IMG/VR virus record: IMGVR_UViG_3300009709_000022
Location: 32,525 to 96,524 of that record
Source of the DNA: a virus
Direction: 5' to 3' (one strand)
DNA length: 64,000 bases
The position numbers and the translations under genes are program-made. The notes beneath the pieces were generated by a model. The model searched no databases and was not told where the DNA came from. It saw only the letters and a list, made by a program, of their open reading frames with translations. Below, piece after piece: positions 3,000-64,000 of the stretch; position 1 is the stretch's first letter, and every line of letters starts with the position of its first letter.

Positions 3000-3214
3000 C
3001 GTAGCCCTCTTTGGTGTTCGTTTTCAGGGATTGGCTCACCGCAATCCCGAGCAAACCCAATACGTTTTGAACGTCTTGCGGTGATGGATACAGTTTGCCG
3101 GGTTCATCGTGTAGCCCTGCTTCCGCATCATCCAATCCGGGTGATACGGAAGCCGAGATGCAGCACTCGGCTTCCCGTCCACCGTCAATTCCATGTCGAT
3201 CGTGCGCGGAGCCA

Positions 3215-3658
3215 TTACCGCAGCCCCCGTGGCACCAATTGATCGGGAATCTCGACCGAGAAAAATCCCTGCTGCCCGCGATATGGGATTGGCTCGTCGA
3301 ACTTGTGGCGCACGCCCATCTCGAAGGCGAAACGGCCTGGACCGTAGTTGCCCCAGTAGAGTTGAGAATCCGTGCGGCGCGAGCGGATATCCTCCGTACG
3401 ATGGCACGCCGTGATGCGTACAACGCCCAGGATTGCGCCGTAAGGCATGGTCTGGTAGCTGAGGCCATACGGATTCAGTTCGTCTTCCCATATGTCCTCC
3501 ATGCCGACCTTTGTTTTGGCAGCGTGCAGGGCGACCAGGCCGCTTACGCGGGTCGGCCAGTGACGGGTCTCATCCACCTTGATTGGATGGCCTTCGCCAT
3601 CGTGTTCGAAGCAGATGCTGGCCCACGGTTGCCAGAGGGATAGGCAAGGTATCTTCAT
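3215..3658 (-). CDS. ASCH domain protein
   Basis: CLSLWQPWAS...K..ETRHWPT...LHAAK...GAILGVV...PIPYRGQQGFF; ATG at 3658 overlaps upstream stop. Confidence 0.85.
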   Translation of the reverse strand: MKIPCLSLWQPWASICFEHDGEGHPIKVDETRHWPTRVSGLVALHAAKTKVGMEDIWEDELNPYGLSYQTMPYGAILGVVRITACHRTEDIRSRRTDSQLYWGNYGPGRFAFEMGVRHKFDEPIPYRGQQGFFSVEIPDQLVPRGLR

Positions 3659-31530: not shown

Positions 31531-33663
31531 ATGGCCGTAATTCGAAAACTTCGCGAACTGAACGACGTCATTGAACAATTGAACGTTCCGTTTCAGCGTG
31601 CAGGAAACGACACGCGCGAAGCCTTTGAACTGTTGACCACAGAAGAGATGAATTTTGTCTTGGCAGAGACAGACCGTTGCCTCGACCTGCGCTACTACCT
31701 GGAAAACTACCACTGTATCCGAGACGAAAACGGTAACTTTCGGACTCTATTTCCTTGGTGGGACCATCAGGAAATTGTGTACGAAGCGATGGTGGAAGAG
31801 TTCGAAGATAACGGCGAATGCCGAATGATCGTTCTCAAGCCGCGCCAGACGGGACTCACAACCTGGACGTCAGCCGCCATGTTCCACCGGACCATCTTCA
31901 ACCCTCACACATATACCATGCTGGTAGCGCAGGATCCAGAGCGTTCCGCAAACATGTTCAATATGTGCAAGAACGCCTATGACGCATTGCCATGGTGGCT
32001 GCGCCCCGAATCGCAGTACCAGACCAAAGGCGATGCGATCGTGTTCCAGCGTAAGGATGAAATGCAGCGCCTCGTTGACCCCGGCTTAGGATCAACCATT
32101 CAGTGCTCGCACGCTCAGAAGAGTTCTGGTGTCGCCATCGGTCGAACAATTAAGAACGCCCACTTTTCGGAAGTCTCGCGCTGGCCAAGTGCGGATGTGT
32201 TTCACGCCGACATTAATCCATCGATGAACGCGAGAGATACATTCGCCATCATGGAGTCTACAGGATACGGCCGCAATGGCCTGATGTACGAATGGTGGCA
32301 GGGATCAGTGGAAGGTGATACTGGTTGGCGCGCGCTCTTCATTCCTGTGTACAAGGTCAAGAAATACTATCTGCCGTTGAAGGGCAAGCTCACGCTTACG
32401 GATGAGGAAGAGAAGTTTACGGCGCGCGTCAGGAAAGAAGAGAAATTTGAAATTCCGGATGGTTTCTGGGCTTTCCGCCGGCGCGGTGTCAAGCAGGCCC
32501 GCCGCGGCAACGGTAAGGCTGGATACCTGGAGTCCTACCCTATCACCGCTATGGAGGCCTTCCAGTCATCTGGTCTGTGCGCGTTTGACCGTGACCGCCT
32601 CGAGCATCAGTCCATCGCAAACGTGTGCAAGCCGCTGTGGGCGGGAGATATTACTCTTGCTTCTGATAACGTCACGCCGCAGCCAAACCTGCACGAAGTG
32701 GCGGACGACGAGGTATTGCCGAAGCGTAAAGGGGCCACCCCGGGAGACCGGCTGCATGTGTGGAAAATGCCAGAGCCTGGCCAAATCTACTACGTTGCTG
32801 TCGACTCTGCGCTTGGTGTTCCAGATGGTGATTACAGCGTGTGCCAAGTACTTCGTGTTGGCATGGCAAACGAACCCGACGAGCAGGTGGCGGAATGGTG
32901 GGGGCATCGTGCTCCCGGCCAGTACGCGCGCGTCTGTGCAGCTCTCGGGTTTTGGTACAACGGTGCGGAAATTTCTGTGGAATATCAGCAGCAGGGAATC
33001 ACTGTTGGCGACAAGCTGAAGGACGACATCGACTATCCAGCCCTATATCGTCCACAGCACAAAGACCGCATCGGTAGCACCATGGGTGTCCATCTTCACT
33101 GGTTGACTACGGTTAAAACCCGTGACGGAATTATTGGCACACTTAACGAAGGACTGATCGAAGACAGCATCATTATTCGCAGCCAAGACCTGATTGATGA
33201 ATGTATCGACTTTGCTTCGATGAATGGTGGCGGGCGATTCGAAGGCCAGGACAATCATGACGACGGCGTCATGGCATTCATGATCGCGCTCTACTGCGCA
33301 CGCGAGACGCAGCAGTTTCTCAAGGCGTCACCAGCAACGACGCAGGTGCGCGCCAAGGGTGACATAAACCACTACGGCGTATTCGATGAGTACGGGCGCC
33401 AGCGAGGCATGTACGACACAAAGGCCCAAGCCGAAAAGGTCGCAGCCCCGTTTAAAGGATGGCGAGTGGAGCCAATTCTTGTATGCAAAGCAAACACTCT
33501 GTACAGCCCGATTTTCGATGGCAACGGTGCAGAGAGTGAGCTACGATTCAAACACAGCATGCCATCTACTGCGATCGTCCCTGATGTGGTCATGCCTTAC
33601 CGAAATTCAATTCAAGCCGCGCAACAGGGGCTCTCTGTTGGTGGCGACCCCGACTGGGGATAA
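31531..33663 (+). CDS. terL: Terminase large subunit
   Basis: Walker A LKPRQTGLTT, Walker B variant HFSEV, MESTG coupling motif, nuclease VAVDSALG..GDYS and HDDGVMA. Confidence 0.93.
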   Translation: MAVIRKLRELNDVIEQLNVPFQRAGNDTREAFELLTTEEMNFVLAETDRCLDLRYYLENYHCIRDENGNFRTLFPWWDHQEIVYEAMVEEFEDNGECRMIVLKPRQTGLTTWTSAAMFHRTIFNPHTYTMLVAQDPERSANMFNMCKNAYDALPWWLRPESQYQTKGDAIVFQRKDEMQRLVDPGLGSTIQCSHAQKSSGVAIGRTIKNAHFSEVSRWPSADVFHADINPSMNARDTFAIMESTGYGRNGLMYEWWQGSVEGDTGWRALFIPVYKVKKYYLPLKGKLTLTDEEEKFTARVRKEEKFEIPDGFWAFRRRGVKQARRGNGKAGYLESYPITAMEAFQSSGLCAFDRDRLEHQSIANVCKPLWAGDITLASDNVTPQPNLHEVADDEVLPKRKGATPGDRLHVWKMPEPGQIYYVAVDSALGVPDGDYSVCQVLRVGMANEPDEQVAEWWGHRAPGQYARVCAALGFWYNGAEISVEYQQQGITVGDKLKDDIDYPALYRPQHKDRIGSTMGVHLHWLTTVKTRDGIIGTLNEGLIEDSIIIRSQDLIDECIDFASMNGGGRFEGQDNHDDGVMAFMIALYCARETQQFLKASPATTQVRAKGDINHYGVFDEYGRQRGMYDTKAQAEKVAAPFKGWRVEPILVCKANTLYSPIFDGNGAESELRFKHSMPSTAIVPDVVMPYRNSIQAAQQGLSVGGDPDWG

Positions 33664-59500: not shown

Positions 59501-62500
59501 TGAGGGTCGGAACTGGATGGATTCCGAGCAAGGTAAGAGTGTGGTCGCGCTCGGTCATGCAGCGAAGAAAGCCGTGTATGTCAGCGCGACTCCGTTCCAT
59601 ACTGCCGTCGAAACAGGCTACATGCACAAGCTGGGACTGTGGCCGGAAGGTGGATTCTTCGAATGGGCCCGTCAGTTTGGTGTGGTTGAGACGGGACCGA
59701 ATTCTTACACCGGAGGCTATGCTCCCAAGAAGCTGATGAAGCTCCGTCAGCAGCTTATCGAGCGCGGCCAGTGGGTATCGTTGGACCGCGATCTGGATGG
59801 CGTATCCGCGCACGTCGGCATGGTGCCGCAGACGGAAGAGGTAAAGAACAACATCAAGAAGATTCGCGAAGTGTTCTCCATGGCTTCGCGCATCTTCAAG
59901 GAACAGGGCAAGTCGTCGATGGCACGCGCAGCTCAGGCTCAGGAAGTCATCTACCTGAAGCGTTACATCGAAAGCGCGCGTCTATCGCACGCTTTGGACC
60001 TTGCAGAGCAATCTGTGAAGGAGGGGTGGAACCCCATCATTTACAGCGAATATCGCTCTGGCAGCGATGAGGGCATGAAGTTCTTCAAGAACCTTCCAGC
60101 GGGCATGGACACCCATCTGAATGCGATGTTGCCGCCATTGCCTGATGTTGTGGCTGCAGTTCGCGAGCGTTTAGGCGAGAACGTATCCATCTTTGCTGGA
60201 CAGGCAAACGAGCTTCGCAGTGAAGAGCGTGAACAGTTCATGCGTGGCCAGAAGCGTGCGGCGTACGCCACCTATGCGGCAGGTGGTGTCGGCGTCAGCT
60301 TTCATGACAAGTTCGGCGACCGTCCACGCCGCGGAATTTACCTGGGTCTTCCTTGGTCTGGAATCATGTTTGAGCAGTCTCTTGGACGCACCTGGCGGTA
60401 TGGCGTGCGCTCGGACGTTTCGAACGTCTTCCTTACGTCGGATACGTTGCCTGAAATGAAGGTGCTGGCGACAAAGATTCTCCCGCGCATGCGCGCGTTG
60501 AACGCAGCCGTTTACGGCGAGGTCAACGAAACAGCCCTTGCAAAGCAACTCCGCGAGTCGGTTGGTCTGGCGGAAGAGGCGATCGATTACGAGATGGGCA
60601 ACGAAGCGGCTCCAGAGGCGGCACAGTTTGAACACACGCCGACGGATCATGGATTCACACGCCTTGAGGATTTGGACTTGCCGAAGGCTTCGGCGGCCAA
60701 AAATCGTGGCATGAAATATCGCGAGCAGCCGCGCCGGCTCTATCAAGGACCGGCGGACGATCTGTTCAGCCGGGACGCACAGCCGATTGCAGAAGGCGTA
60801 TTCAAAGATTTGCCAACGTTTGCGCAGCGACCGTTCCGCAGCTCCTTCGCGCAGATTCACGCAGACATTGTGAATGAGGGGAAGCAGGCATTTATGGCTG
60901 GCGAGCCTGTTAAGCCGGCAATGGAGCGTGCCGCGCGGGATGCCAAGATCGGTCTAAACCTTGCATTGCAAGAGCGCGCGCTCATCGCGCTGCACGGCGC
61001 CAAGAAGAACATGGAAGCCGTGAAGAACTTTGCCAAAGAATGGGTCTATCTGCGGCACACGGCTGGCGAGCAGACTATCCGCAAGATGATGGCCGATGCT
61101 GGCTATGCGAACGAGGGGCGGGAAGTACAGCGTCGTCTGATCGAGCGTAGCCATTTGAAGGCGAACTTCCAGGGTGATTTACTCGCGCGCGTCGCGGATG
61201 TCCTTGGCACTATCAAAGACCCGCGGCAGCATGAGCAGGTAGTTCGTGTTGTGGAAGGTAAAGCGCAGAGCAGTGACCCAGCTATCAACGAAGCCGCGCA
61301 GAAGTACCGCGACTTCTTCGCCCATGTTCGCCGCACACTGGCGGATGCCGGCGCCAGCATGAAGTTCTATGGCGAAGATGGCAAAGAAGTGGTTCTGCCG
61401 TACAGCAAGATTCAGGACGACCCGAATTACTGGCCGCACGTCTATGACTGGAATAAGCCATTGTTGCTAAATGGTGAAGTCACCACGCTCGGCGAGTTGC
61501 ACGACATGCCATCAACGGATGAGCGTCGCGCATCGCTCATCAAAGCGTATGCGAACAAGCGCGGCATCAGTGTTCTGGACGCGGACCGCTTCTTCTCGAA
61601 GAATCGCCGCGGCGTGCGTCTTGCTGGAAACCTTGAGAAGGGACGCCGTGCCAACATCCCTGATTACGATACGACACAGCGTGCATTGAGTGTGTACGTC
61701 AACCAAGTGTCGGACATGTTGGCCAACCTGCACTCCATCGGGCAAGAGCGAGAGAAGATCAACCCGCTCATCTACCAACTCCCTCTGGACACGCAACGTG
61801 TGGTCAACAGCGTTGTGACGGCGGATCTCAACCCGCAGAGTATCGGCGAAGGAAACAAGCGCGCTCTGCGCCTTGCTTCGCAGTGGACCGTGCTGTCGAA
61901 GATGGGTCTATCTGCACTGAAGCTCCCATTCCACATGGCAAAGTCCTCACTGGTGACCAACACCCGCTCACTAGTGGGTGGATTGCTCGGATTGGCGACC
62001 TCTCCGAAAGAGATGGTGGGCATGGCACGCGATGCCGGCGTGCTCACAGACTACGTCCGTGAAGCCATGATGATGGAGTACGGTCTGCATAGCGGCGGCC
62101 TTGACCAGAAGATGCTCACAGCTACAGGGTTCACGCTTGGCGTGTACCTGTCGCGCGTCACCGCCGCTGCATCGGGGCGTGTGTTCCTTGAGCGGTACGC
62201 TGTACCAGAGCTGCAGAAGAATCCAGAGGACCAGGCATTGCGTCGCAAACTGAAGGATCTCTACGCGTTCTCTGATGATGACCTTTCGCGCATGGCCCAA
62301 AAAGGCTACAACGTTGATGATGTGAAGCGTGCGATGGTGGCCGCGGCCGACTGGACGACTGGAAGCGGTCGCCCATCCGAATTGCCTCCCGTTGTTCGCT
62401 ATGTTGAAGACCACCCCATCAGCAAGCACTTCAATTCTCTGATGCGCTTGACTTGGCAGTTGAAGACGTTCGAGTTTAAGACGGCAAATCTGGTCAACCG

Positions 62501-63128
62501 CACCGTGTTCGAAGGCTTGAAAGAGGGTGGCATTAAGGGTTGGAGCAACAAGGAATACAAGGCAGTAGGCCGCTGGCTGGTGAGCTTCGGAGCCGCTGGT
62601 CTAGGTCTTCGCATGATGCAGGTTGGCGTTCAGTCGATCGCAAATCCGGAAGCGGCAGAAGAAGAAAAGCGGAGACTGCGCGATTCACTGCATGATCCCA
62701 AGTCAGCTCTCTTCATGGAGCTTGGCAATGTCTCTTACGGCATGGGCATCTACCCGCTCAAGGTGCTCTTTGACCGCTTGGGCACGAACGATCCGAAAGA
62801 CTTGAAGAAGATGCAGCAGCAGCACCGCCTGCAGAACGCTGTGGAACGTTCTACGGGTGGAATTCTGGCTGAAGACTTTGACCATGCCGTGCGTGGCTTG
62901 ATTGATTGGGTTGAGACGTTCGGCGACGATGGCGTGAAGCACCAGAAGAGCGGAAGCGAACGCCGCAGCGACATCATCAAGAGAGTGATGCAGCAAGAGT
63001 TCGCACCATTGAGATTGCTGAAGGGGGCTGCGAATGCGGTATCGGGTAGTGATAAGCCGGTGGGCGGTACCGACGGACTCGTGCTAAAGCGGCGGGCACG
63101 CAAACCAAGGCAGACAGTCTTGCGGTAG
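53598..63128 (+). CDS. Giant polyvalent virion protein (ddrB-like ParB domain, HExxH peptidase-like domain, Strawberry-notch-like SF2 helicase)
   Basis: HYAVVSADDLITSH...GPPVV...VLSGNGR (~56.2-56.7 kb); STFLHETAH (57900); APTGSGKT, IFDESA, VSATP, GVSFHD, LPWS...QSLGRTWR (~59.2-60.4 kb). Confidence 0.85.
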   Translation: MPKNDQFATPDALASAVQEKYPEYAKVPKIDLAKKVLEKYPEYWGHVDKTTFNAAGIAQSATSANGQTGQQHEQPKPAYNYGSAKAYDPSWWERTKNVFRAGAGEGAEDAAQAGSGGSKLEQLRAFANHPLAAFEQMFSPNPDTAMGRYARGAAKAASGMTSPFQLATMAVPATKLKTVGEVMHAVGSAMLPTVLTGTADSIKQIKAAKESGDVQAEDQAWGEMAGNLAMIVVPHGIGMATERIGHSELNVESQDRYKQPFRKLTDEQKTNVLYSAAEKANPKLAERVEKEFQRINSKKVPGEGGRTVAEVRQANADDAVKESQEQAARREAFNAIISQELQRARQAEAHKQNQLKTEQNIRSQREAQLSAQREAVAAKARADAERARVEGKSVAEQRGFTVDDQRHTQLGLQRENDLAARAAAPSAPPPDTAEGKIAPERVQEKLDAYRERNPGAQIDAPPTAPADRTPVRVQRASELERPVQEFAEKQHGASFSSLPLAQQEEVASHFMRNEPEKWDAFKGTQAFDAYRRHADAVDNATPAMTRWAQRGNATGDELSPDADVMSGVARVVSARTDVDATLKSKPETYQAINQYAEHTYGKSYDSLDPEQKPTALAGFLRTNPDQVGNFVTPEIAGAIQDGQHIDLANMEANLADRQQVQMLMAHREATRAAMDHEISGVAVDEARANLREQTRRIVRLSPSMETEAGNRIAEAASGITRLADRITIDGVKASGDLFHVERAIRQIPERDRSSDMGEFLRQMRNMRLEAEGQALREYREELVRQLRSDAPAARERAAREVVNFEDQRHVMNRMADAMDGEFSTPEQKADAAELRETSDFLHRQEDAVVAAVEEQRSGRPAREVNSKMPVSLGRETRVKLNSGEEVPVHYAVVSADDLITSHQSTNNYQVDQRFPQSAQPRDYLNEPELQTAVEQRANNLDAGDLLAENVRPIEGPPVVLPDGVVLSGNGRTQSIKLAQKRGVYDRVYAALVQRAEQFGIDKTAVVGVKNPVLVRLMDRNVTDTSDLVRYGLEMNRDSSQGMSSAEQSAALSRLLTPSVVERMAGIFSSVSGDASLRSAMRLRARDIGDVLRDAGIVDETKRAAYFTEDGDLTERAKELVEDALAGLTVTNPNTIRRASNSVKDKLGRVGMDFVKMRSAGEEWNLASYNTDAAELLHRAEEQSTYLRRMEGRDVTGDAGHGSESLIERMLHPERYRLSNLEIGFDGQSTHAPVHPAVEAMAMLMEESPRQYAGGVGDYADAAIQGGATMFGAMHPADVFTDKIASRYGLRVIPEEWGMVGGLPDSVKAEIEESRGPMPVEPSVHAENVVADVQPDPAPAVDAMKTRDVRNVSELRRKLANMPNITEEQAQALSDFAEHVLPRAMGESLNDLLGNYRLRFMFGGKEGGARGYTEFVNDSQAVIRLMDSADPSTFLHETAHFLRKMLSSSDQEVVNEFVGARHGEEWSTEQEEKFAQAFERYHWDGGRRRGKLDKVFAVLHKAMQSVYDMARGMGLAKGTDKLNAMFDNWYDWTRKERQPITERNDLAKIEEATKGGTVTIPEDAEMIDGTPRLERGARAFVFSNEREANDFIDRNSKVIRTYQIYKAPGSDATYVKANAVGKRLYQAAVGSVSELARQARDIEERLKSVTDPREEAALRAKLNGIDNKLGTSTFVFGRQPLGGERSTVDLAYGISEMPHLSEPTTPAQAAMVRQVYADPSEFEVGGRNGRTEPELRNVPDETAREAESDRVAELPEPTGASDGRDEATGRVVQGRGGTRRGGAEALARPESNPLAKMPAATLKMPSRPRGTPVVDADAWRGYADALGLPQGTPPPTVRLPEDLREMMIYPGQPEAIEVALSGLQQYDAVVVAAPTGSGKTYMSLAIADQLLGTEGNKVGLIITRARNLISDSDGYIDVGNRLGVTVEHLPNDLSDIQGGGVYADTYAGTRGDKDILGIPWDFVIFDESAEGRNWMDSEQGKSVVALGHAAKKAVYVSATPFHTAVETGYMHKLGLWPEGGFFEWARQFGVVETGPNSYTGGYAPKKLMKLRQQLIERGQWVSLDRDLDGVSAHVGMVPQTEEVKNNIKKIREVFSMASRIFKEQGKSSMARAAQAQEVIYLKRYIESARLSHALDLAEQSVKEGWNPIIYSEYRSGSDEGMKFFKNLPAGMDTHLNAMLPPLPDVVAAVRERLGENVSIFAGQANELRSEEREQFMRGQKRAAYATYAAGGVGVSFHDKFGDRPRRGIYLGLPWSGIMFEQSLGRTWRYGVRSDVSNVFLTSDTLPEMKVLATKILPRMRALNAAVYGEVNETALAKQLRESVGLAEEAIDYEMGNEAAPEAAQFEHTPTDHGFTRLEDLDLPKASAAKNRGMKYREQPRRLYQGPADDLFSRDAQPIAEGVFKDLPTFAQRPFRSSFAQIHADIVNEGKQAFMAGEPVKPAMERAARDAKIGLNLALQERALIALHGAKKNMEAVKNFAKEWVYLRHTAGEQTIRKMMADAGYANEGREVQRRLIERSHLKANFQGDLLARVADVLGTIKDPRQHEQVVRVVEGKAQSSDPAINEAAQKYRDFFAHVRRTLADAGASMKFYGEDGKEVVLPYSKIQDDPNYWPHVYDWNKPLLLNGEVTTLGELHDMPSTDERRASLIKAYANKRGISVLDADRFFSKNRRGVRLAGNLEKGRRANIPDYDTTQRALSVYVNQVSDMLANLHSIGQEREKINPLIYQLPLDTQRVVNSVVTADLNPQSIGEGNKRALRLASQWTVLSKMGLSALKLPFHMAKSSLVTNTRSLVGGLLGLATSPKEMVGMARDAGVLTDYVREAMMMEYGLHSGGLDQKMLTATGFTLGVYLSRVTAAASGRVFLERYAVPELQKNPEDQALRRKLKDLYAFSDDDLSRMAQKGYNVDDVKRAMVAAADWTTGSGRPSELPPVVRYVEDHPISKHFNSLMRLTWQLKTFEFKTANLVNRTVFEGLKEGGIKGWSNKEYKAVGRWLVSFGAAGLGLRMMQVGVQSIANPEAAEEEKRRLRDSLHDPKSALFMELGNVSYGMGIYPLKVLFDRLGTNDPKDLKKMQQQHRLQNAVERSTGGILAEDFDHAVRGLIDWVETFGDDGVKHQKSGSERRSDIIKRVMQQEFAPLRLLKGAANAVSGSDKPVGGTDGLVLKRRARKPRQTVLR
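58777..58977 (+). CDS. Candidate nested +1-frame small gene (66 aa) inside the giant ORF
   Basis: GGAGG-5nt-ATG; MAARSQNYETYLMKLLGKPNLTELRNFLNQ...WYRDVEALVEEERKLL. Confidence 0.55.
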   Translation: MAARSQNYETYLMKLLGKPNLTELRNFLNQPERPTGGTRPPDGWYRDVEALVEEERKLLQDQNPTP

Positions 63129-63137
63129 GAGGGGGAT

Positions 63138-63308
63138 ATGCCATTCAAGAGCGAGGCGCAAAGGCGCTTCATGTACGCCGCAGAGAAGCGGGGAGACGTG
63201 AAGAAAGGCACCGCGAAGCGATGGCAGCGGCATACCCCAAAGGGACGCAAACTTCCCAAACGTGTGAAGCGGCGCAAGGGCGGCCGCAGCACAAATCGTA
63301 AGCGGTAG
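63138..63308 (+). CDS. Small basic phage protein (MPFKSEAQRR family)
   Basis: Manually translated 56 aa; GGAGG RBS. Confidence 0.75.
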   Translation: MPFKSEAQRRFMYAAEKRGDVKKGTAKRWQRHTPKGRKLPKRVKRRKGGRSTNRKR

Positions 63309-63338
63309 AACGCATCACAATTCACAGCGAGGTCTCAC

Positions 63339-63497
63339 ATGCTCATCGTCGTCATTCTCATTCTGTTGCTTTTTGGTGGTGGTCCAGCGTGGTACGGCAA
63401 TCGTGCCGGCTGGGGATATGGTGCCAGCTTTGGTCCGATTGGCTTCCTACTCCTTTTACTGCTGGTGCTGTATATTTTCGGCGGTCTTCGTTTTTAG
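63339..63497 (+). CDS. DUF3309-like small membrane protein
   Basis: MLIVVILILLLFGGGPAW...WGYG...GFLLLLLLVLYIFG. Confidence 0.7.
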   Translation: MLIVVILILLLFGGGPAWYGNRAGWGYGASFGPIGFLLLLLLVLYIFGGLRF

Positions 63498-63498
63498 C

Positions 63499-63528
63499 TT
63501 GACGCCAACTCTGGTCTGGAGATAGATT
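63499..63528 (+). promoter_or_regulatory. sigma70-like promoter of tRNA array
   Basis: TTGACG-18-TAGATT; predicted +1 at 63535. Confidence 0.7.
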
Positions 63529-63534
63529 CATCAC

Positions 63535-63609
63535 ATGAAGTTGTTACTCAGTTCGTCACTCTATCTGTCCTCGTATAGCGGGGCGTGGGATCGTGCGCGA
63601 CTGAGTTAG
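63535..63609 (+). CDS. Attenuator leader peptide MKLLLSSSLYLSSYSGAWDRARLS
   Basis: ATG at predicted TSS; codons 3-15 encode only Leu/Ser/Tyr; overlaps antiterminator arm. Confidence 0.75.
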   Translation: MKLLLSSSLYLSSYSGAWDRARLS

Positions 63610-63633
63610 CTCTTGACCAGTGACAGCGGTACG

Positions 63634-63667
63634 AAACCCTCGCCTAACCGGCGGGGGTTTTTGCTTT
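63634..63667 (+). terminator. Intrinsic terminator (attenuator) directly before first tRNA
   Basis: AAACCCTCGCC-TAACC-GGCGGGGGTTT then TTGCTTT. Confidence 0.85.
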
Positions 63668-63744
63668 GCGGCTGTAGGCAAATTGGCAAAGCCGCTTCCC
63701 TTAAAGCGAAGTGTGTGTGGGTTCGACGCCCACCGGCCGCACCA
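63668..63744 (+). tRNA. tRNA-Leu(UAA), short variable loop
   Basis: Acceptor GCGGCTG/CGGCCGC, anticodon TAA 63702-63704, TTCGA loop, A73-CCA; 5-nt variable region. Confidence 0.85.
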
Positions 63745-63766
63745 GTTCTTTGAATGTTTGATATGT

Positions 63767-63849
63767 GGGGGCGTGGTGAAATGGCAGACACGCTTGTCTT
63801 AGGAACAAGTGCCTTGTGCGTGAGAGTTCGAGTCTCTCCGCCCCCACCA
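63767..63849 (+). tRNA. tRNA-Leu(UAG)
   Basis: GGGGGCG/CGCCCCC, anticodon TAG 63800-63802, extended variable arm, ACCA. Confidence 0.95.
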
Positions 63850-63856
63850 AAGTTTA

Positions 63857-63942
63857 GCCGGCCTGGCGGAATCAGGCAGACGCGCTGCATTCAAAACGCA
63901 GTGTCCTCGGACGTGCGGGTTCGATCCCCGCGGCCGGCACCA
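63857..63942 (+). tRNA. tRNA-Leu(CAA)
   Basis: GCCGGCC/GGCCGGC, anticodon CAA 63892-63894, long variable arm, ACCA. Confidence 0.95.
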
Positions 63943-63946
63943 AGAT

Positions 63947-64000
63947 AGTGAGTTGGGGGAGATGGATTAACCCAGCGTCCTGCTAAGACGCCATGCCTGC
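63947..64000 (+). tRNA. tRNA-Ser(GCU), truncated by window end
   Basis: D-arm GGG/CCC, anticodon stem GCGTC/GACGC around CT-GCT-AA. Confidence 0.8.

Follow-up and report, generated by a model that had tools for sequence, protein, structure and literature searches.

A leader-peptide unit at the end of the 64,000-nt window analysed here (positions 32,525 to 96,524 of IMG/VR virus record IMGVR_UViG_3300009709_000022) is probably a ribosome-mediated transcription attenuator controlling the first block of phage tRNA genes. We refer to it as unit A and put the probability of this reading at about 0.8. Its leader, which consists very largely of Leu, Ser and Tyr codons, and a switchable stop stand directly before tRNA genes; therefore the tRNAs are probably made only when those codons are read slowly. 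The feature is real and conserved, its codon content and helices covary between phages, and to judge from its anatomy and alternative folds it very probably works as an attenuator.

Phage tRNA genes are usually seen either as constitutive helpers in codon usage or as decoys against defences that cut tRNAs, and to our knowledge little is known about their regulation. If the reading proposed here is true, unit A would be the first known case of tRNA genes governed by a leader-peptide attenuator, with direct feedback on tRNA supply.

Structure of unit A and of the first tRNA block

Unit A and the tRNA genes behind it consisted of the following elements, all on the plus strand of the window:

63499..63504, +, -35 box TTGACG (promoter scan; the full pattern with TAGATT is confined to units A and B in the genome)
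63523..63528, +, -10 box TAGATT, with an 18-nt spacer to the -35 box; also the -10 box of the paralogous unit B and of the homolog in phage Tunturi 5
63535..63609, +, leader ORF of 24 codons plus stop, MKLLLSSSLYLSSYSGAWDRARLS, directly 3' of the promoter; homologous ORFs in relatives
63539..63559, +, region 1, containing CTCAGTTCG; pairs with region 2b
63541..63579, +, regulatory run of 13 consecutive Leu/Ser/Tyr codons (codons 3-15): TTG TTA CTC AGT TCG TCA CTC TAT CTG TCC TCG TAT AGC
63581..63598, +, region 2a, G-rich 5' strand of the antiterminator (codons 16-21); forms a duplex with region 3
63592..63611, +, region 2b, partner of region 1 near the stop codon (1:2 protector, by folding)
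63626..63645, +, region 3, 3' strand of the antiterminator, including the 5' arm of the terminator (by folding)
63633..63667, +, intrinsic terminator with a 12-bp stem, a UAACC loop and the tail UUUUUGCUUUG (by folding); abuts the first tRNA
63668..63744, +, tRNA-Leu(UAA), 77 nt, short variable arm (tRNA and Rfam searches)
63767..63849, +, tRNA-Leu(UAG) (tRNA and Rfam searches)
63857..63942, +, tRNA-Leu(CAA) (tRNA and Rfam searches)
63947..64000, +, 5' part of tRNA-Ser(GCU), cut by the window end and continuing over the circular junction

The promoter TTGACG-18-TAGATT (63499-63528), of the sigma-70 type, was the sole promoter-like site within 62000-64000, and the pattern TTGAC[AG]-N16-18-TA[GTA]A[TA]T had two matches in 96 kb, at units A and B, where 0.14 were expected. 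The leader ATG at 63535 lies 6 nt past the -10 box. Because this is the predicted +1, the mRNA of unit A would be leaderless; the start lacks a Shine-Dalgarno sequence, and the reading presupposes that the presumed Acidobacteria host translates leaderless mRNA. An earlier note on this DNA had pointed out the promoter, the ATG at the predicted +1 and the restriction of codons 3-15 to Leu, Ser and Tyr, and the sequence bears out all three. The whole genome contains 785 ATG-ORFs of 18-40 codons, and this leader alone among them has 13 Leu/Ser/Tyr/Met residues in a row. Upstream, a 52-aa ORF of strongly hydrophobic, membrane-like character (window 63339-63497) ends at the -35 box, and before it lies the gene of a 3176-aa helicase/ParB-domain protein.

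The four tRNAs that the earlier note placed behind the terminator (Leu-UAA, Leu-UAG, Leu-CAA and Ser-GCU) were all confirmed. The end of the window is also the end of the 96.5-kb contig, whose ends overlap by 123 bp, and the genome is therefore circular. Past the junction follow the rest of tRNA-Ser(GCU), then Tyr(GUA) and Met(CAU), so that the check whether Ser and Tyr tRNAs follow beyond position 64000 came out positive. The block thus reads Leu-Leu-Leu-Ser-Tyr-Met, and the array as a whole comprises about 30 tRNAs in three blocks. For each of the five elongator tRNAs of the first block the leader run contains a cognate codon. Under strict wobble rules, 6 of the 13 run codons (TCG, TCA, TCC, TCG and CTC twice) are unread by the phage's own tRNAs, and Tunturi 5 has Ser and Leu isoacceptors matching those six. 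Leader and array correspond here in amino acids more closely than in anticodons. A short-arm tRNA-Leu(UAA) of 77-78 nt, as at 63668-63744 of the window, was also present in Tunturi 5 (L014:1196-1273) and in the IMG/VR homolog L015 (L015:6762-6839), and short 'Leu' tRNAs occurred in L016 and in the AT-rich jumbo phage described below.

The terminator is a GC-rich 12-bp hairpin (63633-63661) followed by a U-tract. Its folding energy was -20.4 kcal/mol (z -4.8, with none of 200 shuffled sequences as good) and it ends 7 nt before the start of tRNA-Leu(UAA) at 63668. The earlier note had described an 11-bp terminator with a U-tract; it is present and abuts the tRNA as claimed, with a stem of 12 bp. 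The 63633-63667 hairpin was missed by an automated terminator scan, though folding shows it clearly. Inspection of the sequence found no room for a promoter between the terminator and the first tRNA, which disposes of an independent tRNA promoter downstream of the terminator, the arrangement named beforehand as speaking against attenuation.

Both alternative helices that had been claimed do fold. The 2:3 antiterminator (63581-63598 with 63626-63645) reached -28.7 kcal/mol and shares the 5' arm with the terminator, so that the two are mutually exclusive; the 1:2 protector (63539-63559 with 63592-63611) reached -26.8 kcal/mol. For region 2a the duplex energy was -20.9 kcal/mol (shuffle p 0.002), its own partner ranking first of 12. 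As had been suggested, we folded the RNA under a ribosome constraint. With the ribosome placed in the run the antiterminator was present in silico and 9 of 12 bases of the terminator arm were paired. With the ribosome at the stop codon the antiterminator was lost; 4 of 12 arm bases were then paired, in a weak local pairing of -2.1 kcal/mol.

Paralogous units on the same genome

The genome contains three leader units, A, B and C, each before its own tRNA block. Unit B has the promoter TTGACA-17-TAGATT, the ORF MKMSMTHTFTNRAAAQPRQGIRM with its stop codon and a hairpin, and precedes the block Asn-Gln-Gln-Gly-Thr-Thr-Thr-His-Ala-Phe-Pro-Arg. Unit C has the ORF MRQITKNVVTIQIRGKRMWEGART, likewise closed by a stop codon, and a hairpin before Trp-Met-Lys-Lys-Arg-Glu-Arg-Arg-Val-Ile-Gly. 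Each leader mirrors the block behind it. The fraction of leader residues found in the own block compared with the other two was 0.65 versus 0.22 and 0.22 for A, 0.73 versus 0.18 and 0.41 for B, and 0.70 versus 0.04 and 0.57 for C. The longest runs drawn from the own set were 13, 15 and 9 codons, respectively, and in run length, fraction and coverage score the three leaders were essentially unequalled by other short ORFs of the genome. The own leader has a cognate codon for 5/6 tRNAs of block A, 12/12 of B and 10/11 of C, while the leaders of other blocks provided one for only 1 to 7 tRNAs.

Several other features of this region deserve mention. In unit C (L001:5171-5176) and in units C (L095:5812-5817) and B (L014:8534-8539) of Tunturi 5, the three units with a long spacer after the terminator, the first tRNA is preceded at a distance of exactly 20 nt by a TTGAC[AG] box, which is too near to be a normal -35 box of the tRNA. 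An ORF resembling acyl carrier protein (L001:854-1246) is situated between tRNA blocks 1 and 2, and one resembling peptide deformylase (L001:2567-3082) ends within the promoter of unit B. Block 2 contains an HNH ORF (L001:3674-4186), and a 56-60% identical protein was encoded on very many soil metagenome contigs without tRNAs. A metagenome scan with the HNH alignment gave 80 bacterial homologs, none with tRNAs, and to judge from these sequences the HNH ORF appears to be of bacterial origin.

Homologous units in other phages

The HNH gene of block 2 led to Tunturiibacter phage Tunturi 5, a cultured 309-kb phage of Acidobacteria with syntenic tRNA blocks. The contig itself comes from a moss metagenome, and the link to Tunturi 5 points to an Acidobacteria host. 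Tunturi 5 has leader units at all three of its tRNA blocks. Its unit A leader, MKTLCLSSYCLSSSLSLSDGWDLRTGRDADMI followed by a stop codon, precedes Leu-Cys-Leu-Leu-Tyr-Leu-Ser-Ser-Ser; its unit B leader is rich in Gln, His, Thr, Phe, Ala, Pro, Gly and Asn and stands before a block running from Asn to Phe; its unit C leader is rich in Asp, Ile, Arg, Gly, Lys, Val, Trp, Glu and Met and stands before Trp-Asp-Met...Gly. Further homologs were found in IMG/VR, namely L015 (units A and B) and L016, and, by DNA pattern, L187, L192 and L206.

In L192 (IMGVR_UViG_3300028536_000036, reverse strand, 3148-3650) Leu, Ser, Ser and Tyr tRNAs lie behind a unit A leader, and these four long-arm tRNAs are the only ones in a 14-kb locus of the 22-kb contig. 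The Leu/Ser/Tyr module is conserved, and in this locus of L192 it stands alone. An unrelated AT-rich jumbo phage of 322 kb has two codon-matched short ORFs (L043:11233-11304 and L179, reverse complement, 1626-1670), MLTQTNQTCNNANLIIQGWTGII before Gln-Ile-Trp-Thr-Gly-Asn and MLKSKQKILSKKSL before Lys-Lys-Ser. The first is preceded by a consensus promoter and showed no clear U-tract terminator; these ORFs may have a different read-out. Phage T5 and roseophage DSS3_MAL1, scanned in the same way, had no block-matched ORFs, and a zinc-ribbon-like ORF before the tRNA-Cys of T5 (T5.070) was judged a coincidental candidate.

Other searches for relatives were less productive. The closest by the 3176-aa protein (P0002-P0004, from ENA/Logan) shared 67-75% identity, and the IMG/VR relatives found through this protein (L002-L012) had no tRNA arrays downstream. 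Single-protein scans with its C-terminus and with the deformylase gave no matches, and blastn against INPHARED gave scattered tRNA similarity only. The pattern CTCAGTTCG...TTTTGYTTTG had at least 120 chance matches in genome contigs, with no tRNA after any among the matches listed; the tRNA sequences are too diverged for exact-pattern scans.

The earlier note had proposed looking in related phages for leader codons that co-vary with array content. This is what we observed: composition tracks array content, and 108 of the 116 tRNAs behind the 14 units examined have a cognate codon in their own leader. Cys codons were present in five leaders with a tRNA-Cys in the block and absent from the phage under study, which has no tRNA-Cys; a counter-example is the 14-kb locus of L192, which has one Cys codon but lacks a tRNA-Cys. 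Where the unit A block of a relative includes Cys or Trp tRNAs, its leader has Cys or Trp codons. Asp behaves in the same way in unit C, since the Tunturi 5 leader has six Asp codons and its block a tRNA-Asp, and the unit C studied here has neither.

It might be thought that the small ORF simply encodes a functional hydrophobic micro-protein. It adjoins the 52-aa membrane-like ORF, and the unit C leader of Tunturi 5 has been deposited as hypothetical protein gp308 (L095:5574-5723; PP885688.1 251573-251722). However, peptide composition is conserved between homologs while the order of residues is not, and those leader nucleotides that are conserved coincide with the helices, so that we regard a micro-protein as highly improbable.

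A different possibility is that the codon tract acts without being translated, by pairing of the RNA with tRNA anticodons in a manner resembling a T-box or a sponge, which would shift the balance between terminator and antiterminator. The tract does consist of codons complementary to the downstream anticodons, and the start without a Shine-Dalgarno sequence would fit. Against this, all 14 units examined are ORFs, opened by ATG in 13 cases and by GTG in L192, and each has an in-frame stop, placed where a terminating ribosome would mask region 2. Moreover 7 of the 14 begin with MK, and no match to a T-box or any other Rfam family was found. Control by an untranslated tract is for these reasons very unlikely.

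A real attenuator could also serve as a general gauge of translational health, responding to starvation, host shut-off or inhibiting antibiotics and toxins, so that any slowing would open all blocks. The leaders are indeed long lists of many amino acids, six run codons of unit A are unserved by the phage's own tRNAs, and a tRNA array of Anabaena is inducible by translation inhibitors (PMC8421152, PMC10272220). A general gauge would, however, need neither block-specific leaders nor Cys and Asp codons that follow tRNA content across phages, and we think it unlikely.

Conservation and covariation of the helices

Pairing between the G-rich codons at the end of the ORF and the C-rich 5' arm of the terminator was seen in 11 units, and in folds of their nascent RNA the antiterminator formed in silico with a ribosome in the run and vanished with a ribosome at the stop codon. 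Among homologs the antiterminator strands are completely different in sequence and yet complementarity is kept. Pairs of antiterminator strand and terminator arm from the same unit were better than permuted partners in 12 units (p <= 1e-5), and for seven unit A homologs the observed assignment of strands to arms was the best of 5040 permutations. For some units, single duplexes did only modestly well in shuffle tests. Region 1 is conserved at the nucleotide level as CTCAGTTCG (Leu-Ser-Ser), which pairs with the stop-codon region, in 6 of 7 homologs, the AT-rich L016 being the exception. In L192, the nearest homolog, the terminator stem is maintained by a compensatory change from G-C to A-U. 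All three helices are therefore conserved, with the covariation between homologs that had been sought. Folds of the nascent RNA in which no ribosome was placed also favoured 2:3 in several units, and because of this termination by default relies on an assumed order of co-transcriptional folding.

These data also bear on a more mundane explanation, in which the hairpin is the ordinary terminator of the upstream late operon, the ORF has arisen by chance and the tRNAs come from leaky read-through or processing. The genes upstream have the same orientation, and their transcripts would end at the hairpin. Yet there is a dedicated promoter, the 13-codon run is without equal in the genome, and the design occurs three times in this genome and is conserved with covariation in seven other phage records. 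An operon terminator combined with a chance ORF is thus most improbable.

Proposed mechanism and significance

How might the attenuator operate? Host RNA polymerase would start at the strong promoter of the sigma-70 type, the transcript beginning at or next to the leader ATG. If Leu, Ser and Tyr codons are decoded fast, the ribosome would arrive at the stop codon and cover region 2; the C-rich region 3 would then pair with region 4, and transcription would terminate at the U-tract 7 nt before tRNA-Leu. A ribosome that is slow in the 13-codon run would cover region 1, and the G-rich region 2 would pair with region 3. With 2:3 formed there would be no terminator, and the polymerase would read into Leu-Leu-Leu-Ser-Tyr-Met. 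In RNA that is not translated, such as transcripts running in from the late genes upstream, 1:2 and 3:4 would form and transcription would stop, so that the terminator would also end untranslated read-through from those genes. Units B and C may act likewise on the other two blocks.

The consequence would be negative feedback: a shortage in the pool reading those codons, and nothing else, would lead to the tRNA block being made. Because the tRNA product relieves the stall, this would amount to a feedback loop on tRNA supply. We deduce from the sequence where transcription starts, that the leader is translated, that ribosomes stall on it and that read-through is conditional; the physiological trigger is likewise deduced, and candidates for it are codon demand, host shut-off, starvation or defence tRNases.

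The earlier note proposed two things: that the unit is a stalling attenuator with codons matching the array that it gates, and that it senses class II tRNAs (those for Leu, Ser and Tyr) as part of an inducible counter-defence. The first is supported by the anatomy, the content of the array, the homologs and the covariation. The sensing of class II tRNAs as such did not hold up. The leader lists the content of its own block: in relatives Cys or Trp join the list, and the leaders of units B and C name other amino acids. The class II theme is a property of the content of the unit A block and not what the switch would sense. Plain feedback of supply and demand accounts for the data equally well as an inducible counter-defence. 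A wider idea is that codon-matched attenuators are a widespread form of tRNA-pool surveillance in phages, that the blocks are inducible spares for cases in which precisely the host tRNAs reading those codons are lost to destruction or competition, and that the Leu/Ser/Tyr module answers an Acidobacteria defence which cuts long-variable-arm (class II) tRNAs. Taken together, these three propositions are speculative and we consider them rather doubtful.

With the attenuator reading, regulation becomes readable from sequence: the phage appears to gauge the decoding speed of a block's codons and to transcribe the block on demand. The leaders would then predict which tRNAs a phage expects to lack. 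Tunturi 5 and Tunturiibacter psychrotolerans provide a cultured phage-host pair for testing this, and such compact units could serve synthetic biology as codon-specific sensors of translation.

Comparison with known systems

The trn operon of Anabaena PCC 7120 resembles the phage blocks in that an accessory array of 26 tRNAs is kept silent and turned on under translational stress. In that array a repressor of the RHH type, TrcR, acts at the promoter (PMC10272220), and a word search of the same paper found no mention of leader, attenuation or terminator. For the phage units the attenuator design would suffice without a repressor of this kind. The published description of the Tunturi genomes (PMC11924767) describes no leader-peptide control of tRNA genes. 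The earlier note knew of no such attenuator on a phage tRNA array; in agreement with this we found no description of leader-peptide control of tRNA genes in the literature searched, that outside subscription journals.

T-boxes share with the phage units the sensing of the tRNA pool, a switch between terminator and antiterminator and a codon-like specifier. Unlike the phage units they are translation-free, have one specifier per element and contain a conserved Stem I and T-box sequence, and they regulate synthetases and transporters rather than tRNA genes. An Rfam search at E <= 10 returned tRNAs and sub-threshold noise only, with no T-box, leader or riboswitch family. In the antibiotic-responsive attenuators of cat, erm and ABCF resistance genes a ribosome stalled on the leader likewise remodels the downstream RNA and turns the genes on, but there the stall is caused by the drug and the nascent peptide and not by scarcity of tRNAs for the listed codons.

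A further close parallel lies in the leader-peptide attenuators of enterobacterial amino-acid operons, some of them multivalent (thr, for Thr and Ile; ilvGMEDA, for Ile, Leu and Val; trp, his, leu and pheA; and pheST, encoding an aminoacyl-tRNA synthetase). Common to these and the phage units are a short leader rich in the sensed codons, the 1:2/2:3/3:4 layout, a terminator directly before the regulated genes and the masking of region 2 by a ribosome at the stop codon. In contrast to the enterobacterial systems, the phage units regulate tRNAs and not enzymes, start leaderless, and name between 3 and about a dozen amino acids, which mirror the block behind. They are also phage-borne and present in three parallel copies, and their output would feed straight back on the quantity that is sensed. 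The mechanism, attenuation in the style of trp and his, is thus a known one; what differs is the tRNA genes as its apparent target and the scale of the codon list.
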